DNA of 64,000 bases from Bacteroidia bacterium (lineage in GTDB: Bacteria > Bacteroidota > Bacteroidia > Cytophagales > JAAEPT01): the NCBI GenBank assembly GCA_030431525.1, contig JAUIJC010000001.1, positions 5,901 through 69,900 of the forward strand. The letters are read 5' to 3'. A program made the position numbers and the translations under genes. Positions 6,631 to 34,575 of the stretch are shown here, one piece after another; the stretch's first letter is position 1; every line of letters begins with the position of its first letter. A model generated the notes under the pieces. That model did not search any database. It was not told where the DNA came from and saw only the letters and a list, made by a program, of their open reading frames with translations.

Positions 6631-6730
6631 ATAGGATTTCATCCTATCCTGACATATTTCGCCCTTACAGGGCTGTGACGTGGTAGCCCTGTAAGGGCGA
6701 AATCCGTTAGCGTAGGGTAAAACCCTACGT
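6631..6730. repeat. composite intergenic palindromic element, copy A
   Basis: Small hairpin ATAGGAtttcaTCCTAT at 6631-6647, a 19-bp-stem hairpin ATTTCGCCCTTACAGGGCT/AGCCCTGTAAGGGCGAAAT at 6656-6703 with loop gtgacgtggt, and a third hairpin CGTAGGGtaaaaCCCTACG at 6711-6729. Confidence 0.8.
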
Positions 6731-10125: not shown

Positions 10126-10222
10126 ATTGTACCATGGTTTGTACCATGGATTTCATCCATGGCTAACATATTTCGCCCTTACAGGGCTATGACCTGAAAG
10201 CCCTGTAAGGGCGAAATATGTC
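10126..10222. repeat. composite intergenic palindromic element, copy B
   Basis: Tandem gtaccatgg x2, hairpin CCATGGAtttcaTCCATGG at 10143-10161, and the same large hairpin at 10167-10221 (ACATATTTCGCCCTTACAGGGCT...AGCCCTGTAAGGGCGAAATATGT) with loop atgacctgaa. Confidence 0.8.
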
Positions 10223-13212: not shown

Positions 13213-13313
13213 GACGATGGGCTTTACGCCCATCGCTATCATATTTCGCCCTTACAGGGCTGTGACGTGGTAGCCCTGTAAGGGCGAAATATGTTAGCAT
13301 AGGACAACCTCCT
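13213..13313. repeat. composite intergenic palindromic element, copy C
   Basis: Hairpin CGATGGGCtttaCGCCCATCG at 13215-13234, a large hairpin at 13240-13293 identical to copy A including the loop, and hairpin CATAGGAcaaccTCCTATG at 13299-13317. Confidence 0.8.
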
Positions 13314-13375
13314 ATGTCTTCGTTAATTGCGACGATTGTGAAAAATGCGACGAACAAAATGTTACAATTATCCCC

Positions 13376-24573: not shown

Positions 24574-27500
24574 TTAATCAACTTCCTGACCGTACACCAC
24601 CTTTTTTGGCTTCCAAACCACTTCAAGCTCCTCCAAGGCCTTTGACTTCAATAGAATATCTCGGTCCAAGAACTTGTTGTAAGCCATCTGTGCGGACCAC
24701 GTGCAGGCGCTGTTTGGCTCCAAACCTTCATCGAAACTCAAATCGAGCTGGTGAATGTTCTCCCCGAACTCATCGCAGAATTCCACGGTACCCGAGAAGC
24801 CCTGCAAGGCTTTGTCCGTCTTGTTTTCAAAAGCGAACTCATAGGTGATAAAGCCCATATTATTCTCCTCGGAAAAACCTTTTTCGGTAACGGTTACGGC
24901 AATTTGGGTGCGCAAGGCCTCCAATTTCGTTTCCTCTTCTTGAAGGGCCTTTTGCACCAAAAACTTGCGCTCTTCAGCTTCCTTTAGGCGTTTTTCCTGC
25001 ACCTCCTGCTCATGATTGATGCGCTTGTCCTGCAACTCCTTTTGGCGGATAATCTCAGAAGTGATGCGCTCTTGGTTATCTCCCAATCGCTTGAGCACCT
25101 CCAATAATTCAGGAGCCGGAGCGGATGGCGCCTGTTCCACCTTCACCTCAACAGGCAACGGTTTTGGCTCCTCTTTCTTGACAACCTCAGGAAGCTGTTT
25201 TGGTTTGTCGGCCAAGTTCTTAGCGATGGCGCCAAGCCCTTGGGAGAGCTCTTCCAACTGAATCAAGACCTGCCCCATCTCATTGCCTGCACCCAAGCTG
25301 TTGAGCTTATTGTTTCGGACAAAAGTGTCTTTGATGTCAGCCCAACGTTGCTTTTCCTCGTCGGTAATCCAACCCACCATTTCTTTGAACTTGAGCAGGT
25401 TGGCCTCGGCACCTGTGGTCAAGGTTTGGGACTCGCCCTCGTAATGAGACATGATTAACTCATCGAGCTCCTTGTCGTTCATCACAGGAAGCACCTTCTC
25501 GACAATCTTGTTCATGTTCCGGTAAGAGCCCTGTAACTTGAATGGAGGCTCGGTACGATAGGCGTCGTTTTGGCTCGCCGATTTGATGTATTCAAGGTTC
25601 ACCCTCAAAATCACATCACGAACGGTGAGCATTTTTTTCAACACATTGACATACTCGTTGATTTCCTCTACCGAGTGATTCGCCTCGAACTCAATGCCGT
25701 CTTGGCTTCCCGTTTCGGCAATCTTAATCAAGCCATACAAATCAGACTTGCTCTTGCCTGACAGCTTGTTCAACACAGGGTTTGAGGTCAGGCTGTTCTC
25801 CAAATAACTCAGTTTGAACACATCAGCGCTGTCGCCAATGATGTCACCCAAGTTGTAGATGTCGGCACGGTTGGCCAACATGTCCGGAATCTGGAACTTG
25901 TCACCGCTCTCCGTGTACGGGTTGCCCGCCATGACCACAGCCACCTTTCGCCCACGGAAATCATAGGTTTTCGGACGGCCTTTGTACACACCCTCAATCT
26001 TCCGTTGGCCATCACAAAGCGAGATGAATTTCTGCAAGAACTCAGGGTGACAGTGTTGGATATCGTCAAGGTAAATCATGACGTTGTCCCCCATCTCAAA
26101 GGCAAGGTTCAACTTCTTGAGCTCTTCCTTGGCTCCGGCGTTATTCGCCGAAGAAGGGTCCACGCTGGTCACTTCATGGCCCAAAGCCGGACCGTTAATC
26201 TTCATGAAGACAATGCCCAAACGGTTGGCCACGTACTCCATCAAGGTGGTTTTACCGTATCCCGGAGGGGAAATCAGTAGCAACAAACCCATCTGGTCGG
26301 TTCGCTTGTTCTCGCCGGCCGTGCCCATCTGCTTGGCCAAGTTGGCGCCAATCAATGGCAAATAAAGTTTGTCAATCAGCTTGTTTCGCACAAAGGAGCT
26401 CATCACACGAGGCTTGAACTCGTTGAGCTTCATGTTGTCCTCAAACTCCTTAATGCACGTCTTTTTGGCTTCAAGGAAGGCCTCATAACGAGGCACATGA
26501 TTGAGGGCATATTGGCTCAGCTTCTCGGGGAAGGCATAGAAATCCAAGGCATATTGCTGGCTATCCAAAAGCTTATGTGACCCTTGAAGTCCATCCAACA
26601 CACGCGTTGTCTCCAAATGATGAAGCTCTTTTGGCTGGCCAGTCTCCAACAGCAACAGGGCCGTTTCATCAATGTAGGCCTCGGCAGATTCATGGTCACG
26701 GCTTGAATCAAAGGCGCGCAACCACTGACGCAACAGACCAAACTGCCCTTCAAAATTGCCTTCCAGACGATTGAGTGACTCCTCAAAAGCTGGCTTTACG
26801 TGCTGGTCTTGCAGGAAGCTCAGGAAATCATCGTGGAACAATCCCGCCTTGCCCATGGTCACAAATTCCGTTGCGCCTTGGGTCAATTCCTCAAAGAGAT
26901 AGGCGGAAGAATCCTGAACGTTTGAGGTATCAAATAAGGAAGAAGCATTGGCAAAATCATTAATGGCCTCTGCCAATTCAGCTTTCAACCCCTCGAACTC
27001 CTTACTGTTTGGAAATGCCTGCAAAACAAGGCCTGCTCCCTGAACTTGCTTCTCCAACTCAGCCTTTCGCTCATCCTCGCCATACAACCAAAAGGCTTTG
27101 GCCAAGGAGCGAATCGCTGGACTATATTTTAACAACTTGGCCTCAATGGTAATTTCCACCAAAGCACCAAGAATAATGGCTGTGTCATGGTCATGGACAC
27201 CCTTTACGTAGCCCTCGTTATAGCGAACCGCCATAAACTTCTGGACCACGGCCACCAATTCCTTTTGAGTAAGGTTATGAAGTTGCTCCAAATTGGGCAC
27301 CTCTCCTTCTCCAGCGTGCTCCAGCACTTGATAAGCCAAGTATTCGGCGCGATAGACTTGGTCATTTTCAGACACCAAACTTTGCTCCCAAAGCGCCTTG
27401 TCGCTTACCAAGGCCTCTTCGGTCACTTGCTCAAAGAAGTTGGTTCCCGCCAAATGGTAAAATAGCCCGCCATCACGATTCACCATCGAAAGCGCTGGCG

Positions 27501-30093
27501 TTTGGGTATTCACCAAGAATTTGAAGTTGCCGAAGCTGATGATGTTGTCCCCATCCAAAAAGAGCTCCTGCTTGTCCTTGAGCTGGCGCAGGGCATCCTC
27601 CTTGATGGTTTTCAAACGGGACTGCAAATCATCCGCCTTCACGGAATCCTCCAAGGCCACCAATTCTTTGATGATGCCACGCACCTTGTCAATCATCAAA
27701 TCGGAAGCGAAATAACCGTTGATTTCGCTGACGCTTTTCAGGCTTTCCGCCTTGGATTTGGCAGACTTCAAGATGCGAATGGCCGACTGCTGAAGGACAT
27801 TGGTCCGCTTGCTACGGGCTTCCGCCAATTGGACTTTCTTGCTCTCAAAAGCGCTGTAGATTTCCTCGCGCTGGGTGGCAATCTTGTCCAAGAAATCATC
27901 GAACTCGGCAAACTTCCCTTCCAACTCCTCCAACTGCACCATGAGCTTGGTGAGGTATTCCTCACACTTTTCTGGCTTGTCGCAGAGGTCCAAGAAGTTG
28001 ACCACGCTTTGCCCAATCAGTTTCAACTGGGCGTTGAATTCCGCCTTTCCTTCGACACCCGCCAGCTCCTTGCGCTTGTTTTTCAGTCGCGCACGAATCT
28101 GGTTGAACGAGGAATAGATTTCGGAAATGCTGTCGATGATTTGTGTGGTTTTGGTCGCATCCTCAATCTTGAGGTTGCCCACAATCTCAATCAACATTTC
28201 CAGCTCCTTGGCGGTCTGGTTGATGTTTTCCTCCACCTTGTTGGCATCCACCACCTTGGTGAGCCCTTCGATGGAGCCGTCAATCTCCCCTACTTTGGTG
28301 CGGTAAGGCGCCAAGGCCTCATCCTTGGTCAAGAACTTGACACAGCCCTCCGACAATTCATTGCCCAGCCCTTCGAGCTTTTCCTCATAGGATTCCACCA
28401 ACTCGGTATCCACATAGCGAAGCTCCTTGAGAGAAATAACTTCACCTCGAAGTCCACGCAAGCGCGAGAGGTAGCCAACAAACTCATCAATATGCTTGGG
28501 CACCTGACGACTGATTTCCGCCATCAAAGCATCCGCATCGGCAGTAACATTCGCCACGGCCTCGGCTGTGCTTCGACGAAGGCGCACCACTTTCTCGAAC
28601 TCATCAATGGCCGAAGAAGCGGACTGCTTGATTTCGCCCAATGGCTCAGACAACTGATAGGCATCTGGCTCATTAATCCAGTAATAGGCATCAAGAATGT
28701 CAGTGGACTTCTTCATCAAGTCCAGATACAGTCCTTGATAGCCGTCATCCTTTCCGAGCAAGCCCAAAATCTCATGGCACTCGGCCATGGCTTTTACGAT
28801 GTCCCTGTTGCCAATTTTATAGAGCAGGGAATCATCTTCCGTTCCGAAATCATAATCGGCATCGACAAATGGCGTTTGCCAAATCTGGATGGCATGGGTT
28901 TTCTTAGGCTCCTGATCCGCCTTGAAATAGCACATCTCTCCATTGCCAAAAATGGAGAAACCATGACAAGTCAACGGATTTTCAACGCTCTGATTAATCA
29001 GGTTGTAAGAGAGCATGAGGTAAAGCCCCTGCTCCCGATTGTAGAACACATAGGCGTAATCCTCACCGTTTGGCGAGGAAATCCGCTGTTCAAAAAGCAT
29101 ATCCTTCAACTGGATATCGAACAGCTTGTATTCTCCCGTTTGGAGATAATACCCATTCGGGAAAATCAAACCGTGGTCCTGTGGGAGCAATACACAAGAA
29201 TCCGCAATGGCGTCAATGCGCTGGGCCTCCTGCAACTTCTCGTTATAAACGATATAGCGAAACTCATTCTCCTGATACGGCTTTACCTTCAAGAGAATCA
29301 AGTTGCCGACGATGGCAAAATGGATTTCGGCATCATCCAAGGTTTGGTCCTTGTTGGCCACAGGCTCGGAGAAAATGCCTTTGCCTGTCTTGGTATTGTC
29401 CTCAACCTTGATGGTCAAATCCCCGCCAATGGTCTCCACAAAAATCCTGTCGGCAATGGAGATATGAGGGTGCGCCCCTTCCCTGTGCATATCGCGGGAA
29501 GTGCGTTTCCACTCAAATTCATGCTGACGTGGGAAATCATATTCGTGCTCGCTCCGCCCGTCAATGTATGAAAGCCCACCCTCAGTCATTAACCACTTGA
29601 AGACCTTAAGGTCGGAAACAGATTTCCCCACTTGGAAAACCATATACAAGTGGGCTCCGCGAACGGCAAACTTTACGAAACGGGCTTCCTTGTAATAGCG
29701 GTAAAGATTTTTGAAATCATCCAAAAAGGTCTCGTCCTCCAACACGGAAAGATCCAACGGATGAAAGCTCTGCTCCCTGTATTCAAAAACGCTGAACACA
29801 TCGGCCAATCGAATCTCATTCCTCAGCCCGATTTGGACGTTATAGCCAAAAATGAAGTGCCCACCTACGGGCACCATGTCCCAAGGCACGCAATTGTTCT
29901 CCGTGGTCACCCGATCCGTCCCAAGAAGCTGAGACTCGATGGAACCAAACACCTCCTTTCGGGAAGTGTTCAATTCGTTCAGGCGTTGGCGCAACTCATC
30001 GCCGTGTTTATTCAGGCGGGATTTCAATACCTCGTAGGTACCGCCTTCAAGTTGAGTTGGAGTTTCTATATGTTGAGTTTCGTTGGTGTTCAT
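24574..30093 (-). CDS. giant multidomain AAA+ ATPase (~1840 aa) with extensive coiled coils
   Basis: Walker A ISPPGYGKTTL, Walker B MIYLDDIQ and an AAA_5/MoxR-Lon-like core, with an N-terminal beta-rich region and >600 aa of coiled coil. ORF extends to 30168, but those 25 codons are encoded by the repeat element. The MNTNETQ ATG at 30093 is preferred. Confidence 0.7.
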   Translation of the reverse strand: MNTNETQHIETPTQLEGGTYEVLKSRLNKHGDELRQRLNELNTSRKEVFGSIESQLLGTDRVTTENNCVPWDMVPVGGHFIFGYNVQIGLRNEIRLADVFSVFEYREQSFHPLDLSVLEDETFLDDFKNLYRYYKEARFVKFAVRGAHLYMVFQVGKSVSDLKVFKWLMTEGGLSYIDGRSEHEYDFPRQHEFEWKRTSRDMHREGAHPHISIADRIFVETIGGDLTIKVEDNTKTGKGIFSEPVANKDQTLDDAEIHFAIVGNLILLKVKPYQENEFRYIVYNEKLQEAQRIDAIADSCVLLPQDHGLIFPNGYYLQTGEYKLFDIQLKDMLFEQRISSPNGEDYAYVFYNREQGLYLMLSYNLINQSVENPLTCHGFSIFGNGEMCYFKADQEPKKTHAIQIWQTPFVDADYDFGTEDDSLLYKIGNRDIVKAMAECHEILGLLGKDDGYQGLYLDLMKKSTDILDAYYWINEPDAYQLSEPLGEIKQSASSAIDEFEKVVRLRRSTAEAVANVTADADALMAEISRQVPKHIDEFVGYLSRLRGLRGEVISLKELRYVDTELVESYEEKLEGLGNELSEGCVKFLTKDEALAPYRTKVGEIDGSIEGLTKVVDANKVEENINQTAKELEMLIEIVGNLKIEDATKTTQIIDSISEIYSSFNQIRARLKNKRKELAGVEGKAEFNAQLKLIGQSVVNFLDLCDKPEKCEEYLTKLMVQLEELEGKFAEFDDFLDKIATQREEIYSAFESKKVQLAEARSKRTNVLQQSAIRILKSAKSKAESLKSVSEINGYFASDLMIDKVRGIIKELVALEDSVKADDLQSRLKTIKEDALRQLKDKQELFLDGDNIISFGNFKFLVNTQTPALSMVNRDGGLFYHLAGTNFFEQVTEEALVSDKALWEQSLVSENDQVYRAEYLAYQVLEHAGEGEVPNLEQLHNLTQKELVAVVQKFMAVRYNEGYVKGVHDHDTAIILGALVEITIEAKLLKYSPAIRSLAKAFWLYGEDERKAELEKQVQGAGLVLQAFPNSKEFEGLKAELAEAINDFANASSLFDTSNVQDSSAYLFEELTQGATEFVTMGKAGLFHDDFLSFLQDQHVKPAFEESLNRLEGNFEGQFGLLRQWLRAFDSSRDHESAEAYIDETALLLLETGQPKELHHLETTRVLDGLQGSHKLLDSQQYALDFYAFPEKLSQYALNHVPRYEAFLEAKKTCIKEFEDNMKLNEFKPRVMSSFVRNKLIDKLYLPLIGANLAKQMGTAGENKRTDQMGLLLLISPPGYGKTTLMEYVANRLGIVFMKINGPALGHEVTSVDPSSANNAGAKEELKKLNLAFEMGDNVMIYLDDIQHCHPEFLQKFISLCDGQRKIEGVYKGRPKTYDFRGRKVAVVMAGNPYTESGDKFQIPDMLANRADIYNLGDIIGDSADVFKLSYLENSLTSNPVLNKLSGKSKSDLYGLIKIAETGSQDGIEFEANHSVEEINEYVNVLKKMLTVRDVILRVNLEYIKSASQNDAYRTEPPFKLQGSYRNMNKIVEKVLPVMNDKELDELIMSHYEGESQTLTTGAEANLLKFKEMVGWITDEEKQRWADIKDTFVRNNKLNSLGAGNEMGQVLIQLEELSQGLGAIAKNLADKPKQLPEVVKKEEPKPLPVEVKVEQAPSAPAPELLEVLKRLGDNQERITSEIIRQKELQDKRINHEQEVQEKRLKEAEERKFLVQKALQEEETKLEALRTQIAVTVTEKGFSEENNMGFITYEFAFENKTDKALQGFSGTVEFCDEFGENIHQLDLSFDEGLEPNSACTWSAQMAYNKFLDRDILLKSKALEELEVVWKPKKVVYGQEVD

Positions 30094-30118
30094 AGTATTC
30101 AAGTATTTTTCATCTGAA

Positions 30119-30224
30119 CCCCTCTCTGTCATTCTGACGAAGGAAGAATCTGATAAAAAGAAAAACAATGTTGTCAGCCAGTTCCTTCGCTAACGCTCAG
30201 GATGACAGCCTGTAGTTCAGACCA
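30119..30224. repeat. ~100-bp direct repeat, copy 1 (flanks GIY-YIG gene)
   Basis: cccctctctgtcattctgacgaaggaagaatctg...gttccttcgctaacgctcaggatgacagcctgtagttcagacca. It is internally an imperfect inverted repeat and aligns to copy 2 along its length. Confidence 0.75.
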
Positions 30225-30242
30225 CTTTGTTTGACAAAGCTA

Positions 30243-30548
30243 TTACTGCCCTATTTCCTCATTCAAAAAATCCCATCGGGGATTAAACTCGTTGATCAAC
30301 GCCTCTTTCTTTCGTCTCACCCAACCTTTGATTTCCTTTTCTCTGGCGATGGCATCATTGACATATTGAAAGGTTTCCCAATAAATCAGGTTGTAGCAGA
30401 AGTACTTCCCTGCAAAAGATTTTTTTGACTCCATGTTGTCGGCTAAGTGTTCCTCCATTCGTCTTCTCAAGTCATTGGTCACTCCTGTATAAAGGACTGT
30501 TTTCTTTGGGTTCGTGGTGATGTAGACGAAATAACAATGCTTGTTCAT
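30243..30548 (-). CDS. GIY-YIG nuclease family protein (UPF0213/YhbQ-like)
   Basis: CYFVYITTNPKKTVLYTGVTNDLRRRMEEH carries the GIY-(10-11)-YTG motif plus an Arg and Glu in the right spacing. 101 aa. Confidence 0.8.
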   Translation of the reverse strand: MNKHCYFVYITTNPKKTVLYTGVTNDLRRRMEEHLADNMESKKSFAGKYFCYNLIYWETFQYVNDAIAREKEIKGWVRRKKEALINEFNPRWDFLNEEIGQ

Positions 30549-30597
30549 TGTTGAAAAAATTTTCGTTTTGAGACTCTTTTAAACTCCACTTAGCAAA

Positions 30598-30691
30598 CTC
30601 CCTCCTGTCCTTCTGACGAAGGAAGAATCTGGCAAAGATTTTCAATCAGTTCCTTCATTACACTCAGGATAACAGCCCAGATTTTAGACCA
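30598..30691. repeat. ~100-bp direct repeat, copy 2 (flanks GIY-YIG gene)
   Basis: ctccctcctgtccttctgacgaaggaagaatctg...gttccttcattacactcaggataacagcccagattttagacca. Same orientation as copy 1, ~80% identity by eye with one ~11-bp indel. Confidence 0.75.
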
Positions 30692-30881
30692 TAGAACCAG
30701 AACCCTTTAACTCAAAGACAAGAAATAGAATGACCATTAGGTAAATGAGAATTCCAGTAATGATATAGACCACCATTTTAGAATCCTTCTTTGCGTAATA
30801 CCCGAAAGTAAGGCAGTGAAATACAGTAGAACTTAACTCTCCAAGGGTCAAAACCACTTCCAAAACTAATTCTAACACCAC
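30684..30881 (-). CDS. possible small hydrophobic protein (65 aa)
   Basis: ORF with two hydrophobic segments. Lies between the flotillin terminator and repeat copy 2. Weak call. Confidence 0.2.
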   Translation of the reverse strand: MVLELVLEVVLTLGELSSTVFHCLTFGYYAKKDSKMVVYIITGILIYLMVILFLVFELKGSGSMV

Positions 30882-30902
30882 CGAGCTATTGGGGAAAGAC
30901 CT

Positions 30903-30931
30903 TTAAAAAAAGGGCAAGTTTCCCTGCCCTT
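30903..30931 (-). terminator. intrinsic terminator after flotillin gene
   Basis: On the minus strand, AGGGCAgggaaacTTGCCCT followed by TTTTTTT, 25 bp past the stop codon. Confidence 0.55.
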
Positions 30932-30955
30932 TTCTCATCATCACAAATCAAACGA

Positions 30956-33082
30956 TTAAAGCAATCCTAGGCTTCCAACCGTTTTGTCGGCGACTCCCAT
31001 GACGTTAGCGATGTTAGCGAGGCGACCGATGGAGGCCTGCATGTCGCTATCGTTGGTGTAGTCGGTTGACATTTTATTGAGCAAGTTGGCTACGCTGAGG
31101 TTGCGAACATCCTCGGTGTTCATGCCGAACTGATCCACAAACTTGTGGAGGTTTTCCTTGAACGAGGAACCGTCCGAAGTGTCGAACAAAGCGTCACGCA
31201 CTTGCGAGAGCGACTTCGAGTTGTCCATAAGTCCCTCGATTTGCTTGCCTTTGCCGATGGCTCCAGTGATGCGGTCGAAGAACTGCTGTTCGCCACCCAC
31301 GATGTCGATTTTGGCCGATTTGAGGGCCTCTGCCAACACGCTTGCTTGAGCGGAAGCGACTTTCTCCTGAATGGAGATTTGCGCCAACTCGATTTTGGTG
31401 TCCTTCTCCAAACGAAGCTTGAACTCTTCGTGGTCGCGACCAACACCATCCAATTTCTGCATGGCATTCGCCTTTTCCTCGATACCCTTCGCTTCGGCGA
31501 GGTACTTCTCGGAAGCGATTTTGGCTTCCACCAAACCTTTTTTCTCTTCGGCTTCGGCTTTGGCGTCGATGCCTTTTGCTTCGGCAAGCGCTTTCTTCTC
31601 CAAGATAGATGCCTCTGCAGCACCTTCCTTTTCGAGTGCGGCAGCCTTGGCTTCCATTACTTGTGCTTCAGCCAATCCGCTTGCAGCGGCCTGTTTCGCT
31701 TCAGCTTCTGCCAAGATTTTAATGGCTTCTGCTTTCTTATCGGCGGCAAGCTTTTCAGCCTCAGCCTCAATTTGCAATTGCTTGGCCTTGAATTCAGCAG
31801 ATACTTTCTGTGCCTCAGCTTCCTTCGTCTGACGGAGCAATGCCTCTTGTGCATGCATTTCTGCCTCAATCAATTTGGCCTGCTTCTCACGGTCGGCCTC
31901 AGCCACCAAGCGGGTTTCCTTGATTTTCTCCTCTTCCTCAACTACTGCCTTCTCGACAATCACACGCTCACGGATGACGTCTTGAATTTGCTTGCGCTCC
32001 TCTTCAAGAGCTTTCTCCTTTTCAATGTTCGCCAACTCAACAATGCGCTCACGCTCGGTTTGCTCCAATTGCTGGTCTTTTTGAACGCGCTCAGTCTCAA
32101 TGGCCAAGGTGCGCTCCTTGTTCTTCTCAGCAACCAACACCTGACGGCGTTTGTTTTCCTCAGCTACCTCGATTTCCTCTTGAGTGGAAATTCGAGCCCT
32201 TTCAGATTTCAGACGCTCTTCCTCACGGACCTTTTGCGTTTCTGCACGCTCACGAGCACGAATGGATTCAACCTCACGGAGTTGCTTCTCCTCCTTTTCA
32301 GCCATTTGGCGTTCAAGCTCCAAGATGGTCTCACGAGCCTCAACATCTTGCTTCTTGATGGTTTGGGTCTTTTGGTTCTGCACCAAATTGGCCTCCATCT
32401 TTTCCTTGGCTGTCAGCGTAATAATCTTCTTGATACCCTCAGCATCCAAGATGTTGTTCTCATCAAGGCTTGTGATTGGCGTCTGCTCCAAGGAGTCAAT
32501 AGCGCAGTCATCCAACACATAACCATTCAAGTCTGTACCGATAATCTGAAGAATCTCAGACTTGAAGGCATCACGAGAGTTATACAACTCCACGAAATCA
32601 AAGTGTTTACCAACAGTTTTGAGCGCCTCAGAGAACTTCGCGTCAAACAGGGCAACCAATGATTGTTGCTCGGAAGCACGCGCACAACCGATTGACTGAG
32701 CCACCTTGATAACATCCTGCTCCGTCTGGTTGACACGAACAAAGAAGTTCACCTGAATGTCCGCCCTCATATTGTCTTTACAAATGAGACCTTCCTTTCC
32801 CTCTCGGGAGATGGTAATTTTCTTGACAGTGATGTCCATCTTTTCCAGCTTGTGAATCACTGGAACAACCAACATCCCTGAGAAGGATACCTTTGAACCT
32901 CCCATTCCGGTCTTCACCAAGGCCTGACCTTGGGAGGCTTTATTGTACATCTTCACGAAGAAGGCCACCAAACCGATGAGGAAAATGACTCCTCCCACGG
33001 TAATCGCCATCGCCGCTTGACTAAACAACGAACTTTGTAACAACATAAAATGTGTGTGATAAATATTAAACAGGTATTGCAC
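30956..33082 (-). CDS. flotillin/SPFH (Band 7) family protein, YqiK-like
   Basis: N-terminal TM anchor, an SPFH domain (ISREGKEGLICKDNMRADIQVNFFVRV...) and a long A/E/K-rich coiled-coil with AEAKGI(D/E)xKA tandem repeats. Start may be 33046 or 33010. Confidence 0.8.
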   Translation of the reverse strand: MQYLFNIYHTHFMLLQSSLFSQAAMAITVGGVIFLIGLVAFFVKMYNKASQGQALVKTGMGGSKVSFSGMLVVPVIHKLEKMDITVKKITISREGKEGLICKDNMRADIQVNFFVRVNQTEQDVIKVAQSIGCARASEQQSLVALFDAKFSEALKTVGKHFDFVELYNSRDAFKSEILQIIGTDLNGYVLDDCAIDSLEQTPITSLDENNILDAEGIKKIITLTAKEKMEANLVQNQKTQTIKKQDVEARETILELERQMAEKEEKQLREVESIRARERAETQKVREEERLKSERARISTQEEIEVAEENKRRQVLVAEKNKERTLAIETERVQKDQQLEQTERERIVELANIEKEKALEEERKQIQDVIRERVIVEKAVVEEEEKIKETRLVAEADREKQAKLIEAEMHAQEALLRQTKEAEAQKVSAEFKAKQLQIEAEAEKLAADKKAEAIKILAEAEAKQAAASGLAEAQVMEAKAAALEKEGAAEASILEKKALAEAKGIDAKAEAEEKKGLVEAKIASEKYLAEAKGIEEKANAMQKLDGVGRDHEEFKLRLEKDTKIELAQISIQEKVASAQASVLAEALKSAKIDIVGGEQQFFDRITGAIGKGKQIEGLMDNSKSLSQVRDALFDTSDGSSFKENLHKFVDQFGMNTEDVRNLSVANLLNKMSTDYTNDSDMQASIGRLANIANVMGVADKTVGSLGLL

Positions 33083-33088
33083 TCAAGG

Positions 33089-33742
33089 TTAGATGCCTTG
33101 ATAAGGCTCCACAATATAACATTGGAGCGCCTCATTAAATTCTATTACCAATCCCTGTTCTCCTTTTTGCAAGGACTTGCCTTCGGGAGATTTCGCGTTG
33201 ATAATATAACTTCCTTTAGCATCGATGGTCACTTGCCCAATACGTGAACTGCTTAGGGGCAAGCTTGCAACGCAAATCTTCCCAATTGGATTAAACTTGT
33301 CCTCTTCGCTTTCCTCCATTTTTCGGAACAATACCACAAAGGGCATTGTGCAAAATTTGGCGATAAACAGGCTTACAAAAAAGTATCCTGACAATGCCAA
33401 AATCCCGATTAAGATGGAATCAATGCCCAAATAATGGTTTCCTACTATCGCCATAAACCAAAAAGGCAAAGCGAGAAAAGTCATGAAAACCATGAAAGGC
33501 ACCTTTCCAAGATTAAAGAAGGAAAGTACAGACAAATAGAAAGGAACATCCGTTCCCGCCTCCACACTTAAATCCACCTCAATCTCCACATCGGCCTCGC
33601 CGTCCGCTTCCACATCAAAATCAAGGAAGCCCATATCAAGGGCGCCGAGCATTACAGTAAACCAATAAATTACAACCAGTAGAATCATACCAGTTGGCAG
33701 GACATTTACTCCTGAAAATGCGGCGTGGAGAAGTTCGTTCAT
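33089..33742 (-). CDS. NfeD/YqiJ-like membrane protein
   Basis: N-terminal TM helices plus a C-terminal OB-fold-like segment (IGKICVASLPL...GQVTIDAKGSYIINAKS...GEQGLVIEF). It is immediately upstream of the flotillin gene, the conserved NfeD-SPFH arrangement. Confidence 0.6.
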   Translation of the reverse strand: MNELLHAAFSGVNVLPTGMILLVVIYWFTVMLGALDMGFLDFDVEADGEADVEIEVDLSVEAGTDVPFYLSVLSFFNLGKVPFMVFMTFLALPFWFMAIVGNHYLGIDSILIGILALSGYFFVSLFIAKFCTMPFVVLFRKMEESEEDKFNPIGKICVASLPLSSSRIGQVTIDAKGSYIINAKSPEGKSLQKGEQGLVIEFNEALQCYIVEPYQGI

Positions 33743-33789
33743 AGGCGATTTAAGCTATTGGAAACACATTATTTCTTACAATTTGACAT

Positions 33790-33835
33790 AAAAAAGTCCA
33801 GTAGACCGCCGGTGTTCCCAACGGAATACTGGACT
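33790..33835 (-). terminator. terminator/attenuator between pspA-like and yqiJ-like genes
   Basis: On the minus strand, AGTCCAGTA-(22 nt containing an inner CCG...CGG)-TACTGGACT followed by TTTTTTA. Confidence 0.5.
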
Positions 33836-33849
33836 ATACTTATAGCGGA

Positions 33850-34575
33850 TTAGATGCTGGAGTCAGCAGCTTTACCACCATTCATTTTAGCTTTCAAAGC
33901 AGCCAACGCATCAGATGCAGCGGCTTGAGGCTCATCCTTCAACGCAGAATCGATTTCCTCGTCAACAGAACGGTTCTCATTAGCGATGTCGCCGTAGGCT
34001 TCAGCCAAAGACTCCTCCTCGGCAACTTTGTCCTTCATGCGCTCCAACATGGAGATCGTGCTTGAAGAATCGATTTGAGCCATCTGCTTGTTGAGGTTCT
34101 TGGTGGTTGAAGCCACCTTCTGACGAGCCTTCAAGGTCTTGAGCTCGTTCTCCCACTTGCTGATGTTATGGCGAAGGGTGCGAACGTTACCTTCCAATTT
34201 CTCTAACTGCTTGTCGAAGTGAGCAACCTCTTTGGACAAACGAGCAGTGTGTTCGTCACACTCTTGCTTTTTCAACAAGGCGTCACCGGCCAAACGGTCG
34301 GCATCAGCAGCAGTCATCCCTCCGGCCTCAGCCTTCTGAAGGATTTGCATCGCCTTGCGCTCGTAGTCAGCACCTTTGTTTTTATAGCTGCTCAAATCGT
34401 TTTTTGAGCGGATAGCCAACGCTTTTACTTCAGCCAAGGCGTGAAGCGCCTTGTCCAAGTCAGCTTTCATATCACGGATGCCCTGTTCGGTCATCTTGAT
34501 TGGGTTCTCTAGGGCGTCAATCGCAGAGTGTGCTTCAGCCTGACCCACTTTGAATATTCTTTTGAAAATGTTCAT
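33850..34575 (-). CDS. pspA: PspA/IM30 (Vipp1) family protein
   Basis: MNIFKRIFKVGQAEAHSAIDALENPIKMTEQGIRDMKADLDKA... is a canonical PspA/IM30 N-terminus. The protein is predicted entirely coiled coil. Confidence 0.85.
   Translation of the reverse strand: MNIFKRIFKVGQAEAHSAIDALENPIKMTEQGIRDMKADLDKALHALAEVKALAIRSKNDLSSYKNKGADYERKAMQILQKAEAGGMTAADADRLAGDALLKKQECDEHTARLSKEVAHFDKQLEKLEGNVRTLRHNISKWENELKTLKARQKVASTTKNLNKQMAQIDSSSTISMLERMKDKVAEEESLAEAYGDIANENRSVDEEIDSALKDEPQAAASDALAALKAKMNGGKAADSSI

Follow-up and report, generated by a model that had tools for sequence, protein, structure and literature searches.

An SsnA-family nuclease gene between paired hairpins: a probable Ssn-type cassette in a Bacteroidia genome

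The analysis was carried out on a stretch of 64 kb (64,000 nt) from the genome of a Bacteroidia bacterium (contig JAUIJC010000001.1), hereafter referred to as the window; all coordinates are those of the window, position 1 being its first letter. Between a flotillin gene and a gene for a giant ATPase the window contains a gene for a 101-amino-acid (aa) GIY-YIG nuclease, which is bracketed by two repeat units, 30117-30224 and 30596-30691, in direct orientation. The locus is very probably an Ssn-type cassette, in which the gene for an SsnA-family nuclease has on either side two of the hairpins that its product recognizes. Such an arrangement is not new: the system was published in 2025, and its repeats had been catalogued in 2013. 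What is added here is a clade-specific form of the recognition motif lying outside the published pattern, its exact recurrence in three phyla, and circumstantial evidence of insertion.

The Ssn system was described by Chenal et al. (2025; PMC11893778). SsnA of Neisseria meningitidis, a 94-aa single-domain GIY-YIG protein, binds the Neisseria repeat NTS (CGTCATTCCCGCGMAVGCGGGAATCYRG) as a folded single strand and cuts single-stranded DNA (ssDNA) a few nucleotides 5' of the motif, leaving double-stranded DNA (dsDNA) and RNA uncut; the NTS bases just 5' of the palindrome and the C just 3' of it are critical for this (PMC11893778). Homologs of SsnA (CDD cd10448, GIY-YIG_unchar_3) are found across phyla and are typically flanked by motifs termed Ssn-related motifs (SRM), in the layout NTS-ssnA-NTS. 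The published SRM string, HGTCWYN(0-2)YYVSBRHN(0-5)WNVSBRGN(0-2)RNCYNB, is to be found within 500 bp on both sides of the gene. In N. meningitidis SsnA reduces transformation by DNA that carries NTS. A transposon-like origin of Ssn is put forward as a hypothesis only, and an ssDNA-cutting toolbox is proposed (PMC11893778).

The nuclease and its flanking repeats

The cassette consists of the following features (coordinates, strand, feature):

30243..30548, minus: intact ssnA-like gene for a 101-aa single-domain GIY-YIG nuclease (open reading frame (ORF) and Pfam PF01541)
30117..30224, no strand assigned: repeat copy 1, 3' of ssnA and 23 nt 5' of the start codon of the DUF3686 gene
30127..30152, plus: SRM-A of copy 1, TGTC-ATTCT-GA-C(GAA)G-GA-AGAAT-C-TG, the canonical form of the clade (arm-plus-C rule)
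30178..30207, minus: SRM-B of copy 1, TGTC-ATCCT-GA-GC(GTTA)GC-GA-AGGAA-C-TGG, near-canonical (relaxed rule)
30596..30691, no strand assigned: repeat copy 2, 5' of ssnA, a degenerate SRM dimer with a 15-nt spacer
30606..30631, plus: SRM-A' of copy 2, with TGTCCT for TGTCAT at the head-stem junction and otherwise the same as SRM-A (sequence and alignment)
30647..30674, minus: SRM-B' of copy 2, with head TGTTAT for TGTCAT and the inner stem lost (GAGTGTAATGA) (sequence and alignment)

The 101-aa protein matched Pfam PF01541 (GIY-YIG) over residues 5-81 (E 1.4e-16), and no other domain was found in it; with one GIY-YIG domain in 101 aa it falls within the size range of the SsnA family (at most 150 aa, single domain). 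Pairwise comparison with the ssnA ortholog of N. gonorrhoeae, which was translated from a locus flanked by canonical NTS (L126) and stands in for N. meningitidis SsnA, revealed 35% identity over 85 aa (49.3 bits, 84% of the query) with an E of 2e-14 that is pairwise and not per proteome. With this ortholog as reference the protein lies inside the homology limits of the family (E < 1e-10, at least 75% cover). The catalytic residues Y6, Y17 and E64 of SsnA are matched in the alignment by Y9, Y20 and E70 of the window protein (the VYIL, LYIG and REKQ positions of the Neisseria ortholog). Comparison with Escherichia coli YhbQ, also pairwise, gave 30% identity over 69 aa (33.5 bits, E 5e-8); the alignment stops at about residue 87 of the query, YhbQ having no C-terminal NPxWxxL segment. 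A first, sequence-only reading of this DNA had called the gene YhbQ-type. A profile built from the 120 closest homologs contradicts this, since it scored the Neisseria ssnA ortholog at 76.1 bits (E 1.2e-25) and YhbQ at 26.5 bits. The small nuclease should thus be labelled Ssn-type, and not YhbQ or homing endonuclease. The best sequence match in PDB was the UPF0213 protein BH0048 of Bacillus halodurans (1zg2, E 9.5e-4).

The Neisseria ortholog came to light in a tblastn search of a plasmid collection, which matched two N. gonorrhoeae chromosomes of 2.17 Mb deposited as plasmids. In the one inspected (L126, NZ_CP119142.1 1880219-1883464) a convergent NTS pair lies 5' of ssnA and further NTS copies lie 3' of it, a layout that matches that of the window. 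The L126 ssnA ortholog has no in-frame ATG; a nearby ATG in another frame is followed by a stop after 10 codons, and the gene may be frameshifted.

Database searches returned 6793 relatives of the window protein. The closest, 65-74% identical, belong to Saprospiraceae, Cytophagales, Candidatus Amoebophilus and metagenomic bacteria. About a third of the 120 closest homologs (38) are longer, at 112-140 aa (P0006, P0007, P0009, P0010, P0014, P0021, P0024 and others). The idea that long database homologs (117-140 aa) arise by read-through into the repeats proved wrong, as most of those inspected have a conserved C-terminal tail: it is kept in most of 16 long homologs, in two types, the commonest being ...NDPxEIxKGDLPxWxIGDxYWxP. 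The window protein has no such tail.

The two ~100-bp direct repeats that the sequence-only reading had placed around the gene were recovered both by a repeat finder and by MAFFT. The repeat finder detected three blocks: D1 (30117-30157 / 30596-30636, 83% identity), D2 (30193-30224 / 30660-30691, 78%) and D4 (30171-30188 / 30639-30656, 83%). Alignment of the two copies with their flanks showed 79% mean column identity and an 11-nt indel in the spacer. A 26-mer common to both copies, AGATTCTTCCTTCGTCAGAAKGACAG, occurs exactly twice in the window, compared to 0.00 expected from 100 shuffles, and no third copy of the repeat was detected in the window. The imperfect palindrome claimed for each copy was likewise borne out, with arms at 30113-30137 / 30197-30221 and 30138-30156 / 30171-30189. 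On either strand copy 1 forms a single long hairpin (ssDNA, -20.2 / -18.8 kcal/mol, z -5.0 / -3.6; as RNA, -38.7 to -41.8 kcal/mol, z -5.0 on the plus strand), and copy 2 no longer folds better than shuffles as ssDNA (z -1.4 / -1.0). The only other public contig with the locus, Logan contig L001 (SRR24442557), is identical to window positions 30181-33852 and ends inside the spacer of copy 1. This break was considered as a sign of multicopy repeats, and the idea was dropped, since copies 1 and 2 share only 20-26 identical nt, less than a 31-mer.

Copy 1 is an intact convergent SRM dimer with a 25-nt spacer and partly complementary outer flanks (TCTGAAC / GTTCAGA). Its SRM-B has one A.A mismatch at the base of the stem, and the ATCCT arm of this motif is the second commonest type at homolog loci. 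The functional anatomy of NTS is thus present once per strand in copy 1 (30127-30152, plus; 30178-30207, minus); copy 2 contains mutated versions, affected at the C of the TGTC head in SRM-B' and at the A after the head, the first stem base, in SRM-A'. If the mutational rules established in Neisseria transfer, copy 1 would offer one good site per strand and the copy 2 sites would be poor substrates. Since mutations affect the TGTC head or the position adjoining it in both motifs of copy 2, the cassette has probably become a resident that is largely unable to move. The similarity between copies 1 and 2 runs 12-18 nt past the SRM heads, and solo dimers elsewhere have no such common flanks; this would fit either a duplicated unit or a repeat that extends beyond the two motifs.

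No SRM other than those flanking the gene was found in the window. A looser structural rule applied to the whole window was uninformative (24 matches, 20 expected). A search of the repeats against Rfam gave no match at the gathering threshold or at E <= 1. A structured RNA of the hammerhead type was considered and rejected: CTGACGA on the plus strand resembles the core CUGANGA, but there is no GAAA after the stem. The only sigma-70-like promoter match of the region (30132-30105, minus) is formed by the motif end ATGACA, a 16-nt spacer and AAAAAT, and is directed into the DUF3686 gene; its relevance is doubtful, as promoters of Bacteroidota differ.

By analogy with the Neisseria and Wolbachia enzymes, the 101-aa protein would bind an SRM only in single-stranded, folded DNA. 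It would recognize the unpaired TGTC head, the AT-initial stem and the C directly after the stem, and would nick the bound strand a few nucleotides 5' of the TGTC head, with neither dsDNA nor RNA as a substrate. Each ~100-bp repeat would present a convergent SRM pair or, alternatively, one long hairpin similar to a REPIN (a hairpin formed by paired repetitive extragenic palindromes, REPs). Cleavage of ssDNA, with the strand and site cut, is most likely the activity of the window protein, judging by its characterized relatives. We also infer the manner in which the cassette arrived, presumably insertion into the flotillin / DUF3686-AAA spacer, and its effect on the host. The 101-aa protein and TGTCATTCTGACGAAGGAAGAATC make a predicted enzyme/site pair ready for the ssDNA-cutting toolbox.

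The motif at homologous loci and in other genomes

For the analysis of homolog loci the published SRM string was replaced with an explicit structural rule and shuffle controls. Eighty metagenomic homolog loci were fetched, and the 73 with enough flanking sequence were used for flank statistics. Long direct repeats across the gene were detected at 35 of these 73 loci, and at 0 of 73 when reversed sequences served as the control. At 54 of 73 loci both sides of the gene have a motif that combines the head GTCAY with a stem of 4 bp or more and a C after the stem, compared to 0.65 in shuffles. Within 400 nt of the gene, motifs with perfect 5-bp arms reached a density of 1.93 per kb, compared to 0.20 per kb at distances above 600 nt, an approximately tenfold difference. 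The arms were of several types (ATTCT/AGAAT, 95; ATCCT/AGGAT, 87; ATGCT/AGCAT, 26; ATTCC/GGAAT, 12; ACCCT/AGGGT, 6; ATCCC/GGGAT, 5), and the segment between them started and ended with GA in 221 of the 248 motifs of the clade. This compensatory variation of the arms, together with the constancy of GA...GA across homolog loci, indicates that the hairpin is under selection, in a clade-specific form.

At seven named homolog loci TGTCAT...ATGACA hairpin pairs were found on both sides of the gene, with unrelated host genes around them; cas7/cas3, nrdB/nrdA, helicase/yhcG and GH43/GH127 are among the gene contexts of homologs. Beside some ssnA homologs (flanks of L159, L161, L162, L166, L170, L183 and L184) there are tandem arrays of half-motifs that resemble bacterial interspersed mosaic elements, for instance ...GATCCTTCGTTCCTCAGGATGACA repeated every 46 nt or GCTCAGGGTGACAGGGAGGA every 22 nt.

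The 19-mer GATTCTTCCTTCGTCAGAA, the core of the plus-strand motif, is contained in the reverse complement of SRM-A. In a scan of one genome per species it was found in at least 120 genomic places. Hosts among the matches listed were Bacteroidota (Flavobacterium, Chryseobacterium, Epilithonimonas, Pedobacter, Mucilaginibacter, Marinoscillum and Spirosoma, with many Flavobacteriia and Sphingobacteriia overall), Chloroflexota (GC-rich contigs of Thermomicrobiales and Dehalococcoidia) and several Patescibacteria. Among the 120 matches listed a GIY-YIG gene was present within the locus in 3 and absent from the other 117. Many copies of the 19-mer are solo inverted pairs, intergenic and with a variable spacer, though a partner motif is not evident in all, and other genomes contain several copies each among the matches listed. 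In Chryseobacterium the dimers are often enclosed by a larger palindrome (GAGGCTGTCTCAAAAG ... CTTTTGAGACAGCCTC) similar to the stem of a terminator. The presence of the exact core in Bacteroidota, Chloroflexota and Patescibacteria points to horizontal spread or to a very tight co-constraint of protein and DNA.

The insertion site and alternative explanations

All genes of the region lie on the minus strand, in the transcription order PspA, a 217-aa membrane protein, flotillin, the 101-aa ORF and the giant ORF. The features that surround the cassette are:

24574..30093, minus: giant DUF3686 / DUF7902 / AAA ATPase gene, 1839 aa, true start ATG 30093 (Pfam and ortholog N-termini)
30094..30168, minus: spurious 25-codon N-terminal extension of the six-frame ORF, which starts at TTG 30168
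30905..30934, minus: terminator-like GC hairpin and T-run directly 3' of flotillin (sequence comparison with L128 and L129)
30956..33046, minus: flotillin-family gene (homologs named flotillin / YqiK)
33850-34575, minus: PspA gene (ORF / Pfam)

According to the sequence-only reading, the arrangement resembles a small selfish element inserted between flotillin and the giant gene, and a search for a locus without the insertion was proposed. Three orthologous rows of PspA, membrane protein, flotillin and DUF3686-AAA genes were examined, with flotillins 63-65% identical to that of the window. The spacer between flotillin and the DUF3686 gene, 862 nt in the window, is 88 nt in L128 and 73 nt in L129, and no GIY-YIG gene lies in it at these two distant loci. 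In the third row, L130, it is 660 nt and contains two small ORFs without a Pfam match, neither of them GIY-YIG-like by eye. A terminator-like hairpin stands at the same place directly 3' of flotillin in the window, L128 and L129, though it is absent from the list of the automatic terminator scan; it appears to mark the end of the former spacer, with the cassette downstream of it. The short spacers at two of the three orthologous loci, together with the position of the cassette 3' of the flotillin terminator, therefore indicate that the cassette is extra DNA, apparently inserted into a conserved gene row. No target-site duplication is visible in the window at the cassette or at either unit, and a GGGTTC resemblance around the cassette, considered as such a duplication, was judged to be due to chance. 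Between the flotillin terminator and repeat copy 2 there is also a 30-codon hydrophobic ORF (MVVYIITGILIYLMVILFLVFELKGSGSMV; 30684-30776, minus); the two small ORFs of L130, which have hydrophobic stretches, are in the equivalent position.

Duplications of host sequence were found around the cassette at two distinct homolog loci of about 87. In two Saprospiraceae assemblies (L003 and L004) an ssnA cassette is located within the 5' end of nrdA, the gene of the ribonucleotide reductase large subunit, and is flanked by a 99-nt, 99% identical duplication of host sequence that includes the start codon (2671-2769 / 3495-3593 in L003, the same in L004). At the second locus, L183, a 53-nt, ~87% identical duplication flanks the cassette at about -255..-202 and +143..+196 relative to the gene; the host gene duplicated there is apparently the 5' end of carB, as its translated start resembles the conserved carB N-terminus. 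Judged by sequence, both have the appearance of long target duplications by which an essential gene stays intact. The insertion in a conserved operon and these rare duplications of host-gene 5' ends provide circumstantial support for mobility of the cassette.

The position of copy 1 also bears on the start of the giant gene, whose product contains the Pfam domains DUF3686, DUF7902 and AAA. The six-frame ORF begins with TTG 30168 inside copy 1, and the sequence-only reading had ascribed its first 25 codons to the repeat and had set the likely real start at ATG 30093. The start is upheld. As to the codons, about 17 (30168-30117) do come from copy 1, including the peptide SSFVRMTE, a read-through of the SRM, and the other 8 come from the 23-nt stretch that separates copy 1 from ATG 30093. 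At three loci the N-terminus of the ortholog reads M-(5-17 aa)-LEGGTYEIL or LDGGTYEIL. The product translated from ATG 30093 (MNTNETQHIETPTQLEGGTYEVL) shows the same pattern, and position 1 of DUF3686 corresponds to its residue 33. Because of the ortholog N-termini, the DUF3686 alignment and the read-through of the repeat, we consider the extension spurious and ATG 30093 the true start. There is a lesson for annotation here: SRM repeats create false N-terminal extensions, in this case one of 25 codons on a 1839-aa ATPase.

What the cassette does at this site can be explained in several ways. It is possible, though we regard it as doubtful, that it is an active mobile element, with SRM-ssnA-SRM as the autonomous, insertion-sequence-like unit, solo SRM dimers as non-autonomous ones and SsnA in the role of RAYT (the REP-associated tyrosine transposase), moving via nicks at ssDNA hairpins. 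The same hypothesis is raised in the published discussion (PMC11893778). It is favoured by the extra DNA in a conserved operon, by the unrelated gene contexts of homologs, by the excess of solo dimers over gene-linked ones (117 among the 120 matches listed), by the similarity of copies 1 and 2 for 12-18 nt past the SRM heads and by the nrdA (99-nt) and carB (53-nt) duplications of host coding sequence. GIY-YIG nucleases are DNA hydrolases for which neither covalent intermediates nor strand transfer are known, and hydrolysis without strand-transfer chemistry speaks against transposition. So do the lack of a visible target duplication in the window, the degeneration of copy 2, and the rarity of host-sequence duplications among homolog loci. 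Moreover, an identical homolog, P0024, was found on 24 contigs from many samples, always in one context, and recent transposition was rejected on this ground.

A more specific proposal, that the cassette is an autonomous element of a new mechanistic class in which a hydrolytic nickase acts at hairpins on opposite strands and the staggered breaks yield target duplications of tens to ~100 nt, is unlikely. Were it true, the ~100-bp direct repeats of the window and the nrdA and carB duplications would be long target duplications, and the solo dimers found across phyla would be non-autonomous offspring. Of the small selfish element that had been proposed, the insertion is supported, by the extra DNA and by homologs in unrelated contexts, and its likeness to homing endonucleases is not.

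Alternatively, the nuclease may have been domesticated and restrict or trim incoming SRM-bearing ssDNA during transformation or conjugation, the repeats being recognition sites or regulatory neighbours; we hold this explanation only tentatively. Such a role is the only one demonstrated in vivo for the family, in N. meningitidis (PMC11893778). It is consistent with the stable single locus of P0024 and with the conservation of the protein, which is 65-74% identical across Saprospiraceae, Cytophagales and Amoebophilus, compared to at most 65% for flotillin. However, with no SRM in the 64 kb beyond those flanking the gene, the enzyme would have few sites to act on, and no known defence-system model was matched, the sole PADLOC match being at chance level (E 0.009).

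An action of the repeats on RNA, as REP-like stabilizers or attenuators of mRNA with an incidental link to the nuclease, is improbable. Copy 1 does have a strong RNA fold and lies 23 nt 5' of a start codon in a row of co-oriented genes, and many such REPs are suggested to be transcribed (PMC3733652). Yet the hairpin is followed by no T-run, the terminator scan gave no match there, and no Rfam family was found; the head and tail are strand-specific features recognized by a nuclease that does not bind RNA (PMC11893778), and the motifs are very strongly associated with the gene in statistical terms. An effect of the copy 1 hairpin on RNA could still occur as a side effect.

Finally, the view that the gene encodes a free-standing dsDNA homing endonuclease, with the repeats as halves of a duplicated homing site, which develops the homing-endonuclease-like element of the sequence-only reading, has the GIY-YIG fold, a weak similarity to phage GIY-YIG homing endonuclease families in PHROG (E 2-3e-4) and the placement between genes in its favour, but is very improbable given a protein of 101 aa without a DNA-binding domain, a score of 23 bits with the group I intron endonuclease model TIGR01453 (cut-off 56), no homolog at E <= 1e-5 in 50,697 phage records, characterized relatives that leave dsDNA alone (PMC11893778) and repeats dispersed without the gene in many genomes. 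A phage or defence origin of ssnA was rejected on the same phage, PHROG and PADLOC results.

Elsewhere in the window the Rfam Acido-Lenti-1 RNA motif was matched at four intergenic sites (6685-6729, minus; 10144-10188, plus; 13215-13261, plus; 13272-13316, minus), with scores of 38-42 bits (gathering score 37). All four copies share GCTAAC..ATTTCGCCCTTACAGGGCT; the first hairpin differs in sequence from copy to copy, with arms that by eye are complementary in each, and two of the copies are paired in convergent orientation. Acidobacteria and Lentisphaerae gave the motif its name, and the genes next to the window copies look like those of Bacteroidota.

Comparison with known systems

GIY-YIG homing endonucleases (I-TevI, T4 Seg/Mob) share with the window protein the catalytic domain and the occurrence of a small gene in or between host genes, homologs of the window gene lying in the 5' ends of nrdA and the apparent carB. 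Unlike them, the window protein has no C-terminal DNA-binding domain, its homologs were not found in phages or introns, and its characterized relatives cut ssDNA only. Proteins of UPF0213 (YhbQ, BH0048) are similar in size and fold family but more distant than SsnA (26.5 and 76.1 bits, respectively). A miniature inverted-repeat transposable element has terminal inverted repeats and a short target-site duplication; in the window the heads of a dimer are inverted (TGTCAT...ATGACA), and no duplication flanks the units or the cassette.

With REP/REPIN-RAYT and IS200/IS605 systems the locus has in common one gene flanked by hairpins that are recognized in ssDNA, inverted doublets, and solo doublets in intergenic positions. 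The enzyme of the window is a GIY-YIG hydrolase, however, and not a Y1 HUH enzyme, and the tag is TGTC, not GTAG. The resemblance to REPIN/RAYT is thus an analogy of layout, not membership.

A closer counterpart is provided by the CGTC-tagged REPs, often with TGTC, of Di Nocera et al. (2013; PMC3733652), a superfamily to which the Neisseria NTS belongs and whose name is also used for SRM. These have A-T at stem positions 1-2, an uninterrupted stem of 8-9 bp, a loop of 4-5 nt and a short tail with the consensus CCA. They occur mostly as inverted dimers, heterodimers included, with spacers of 20-100 bp, and can be folded as one large hairpin (PMC3733652). They occur in many copies per genome, are known from five phyla, Bacteroidetes among them, include Neisseria dRS3 and Rickettsia RPE-4/6, and "apparently lack a dedicated transposase"; the survey suggests that many are transcribed (PMC3733652). 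The window motifs agree in head and stem start (TGTC-AT...AT-C in SRM-A, TGTC-AT...AA-C in SRM-B, with all arm types A(T/C)-initial) and in forming inverted dimers or heterodimers, with one spacer in the range (25 nt) and the other below it (15 nt). They differ in a stem of 5 bp, GA/GA and 1-2 bp in place of an uninterrupted one, a loop of 3-4 nt, the tail CTG in place of CCA, and the associated enzyme gene, none having been found in the survey.

The nearest relative is the Ssn system, and several points count against assigning the locus to it. The window protein is only 35% identical to the Neisseria ortholog, and the biochemically characterized relatives (Neisseria, Wolbachia) include no member of Bacteroidota. 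The published SRM string has no match in the window and matches 1 of the 73 homolog loci, that of Neisseria. Only two repeat units are present in 64 kb, a count that refers to this window, and the nearest orthologous loci are so distant (flotillin 63-65%) that the junction and a target duplication are not definable. Further differences are a stem of 5 bp followed by GA...GA, an inner stem of 1-2 bp and a GNA-type loop, compared to the uninterrupted G+C-rich stem of 8-9 bp in Neisseria, and a Cytophagales-like Bacteroidota host in which no repeat cluster surrounds the locus.

The string misses the motif of the clade because the A of the conserved GA violates its S position. The published pattern thus overlooks a whole clade, marked by the GA...GA interruption and GNA-type loops and linked to the gene at most of the loci analyzed. 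Although the string fails, protein homology and the anatomy of head, stem and trailing C place the locus in the Ssn system, with a variant SRM. The features held in common are a single-domain GIY-YIG protein of ~100 aa that keeps the catalytic Tyr/Tyr/Glu, a gene bracketed by hairpins, an unpaired (C/T)GTC head, an AT-initial stem, a C after the stem and convergent pairs. Nor are the repeats confined to this locus; the superfamily that includes them has been described and has already been linked to the nuclease family.

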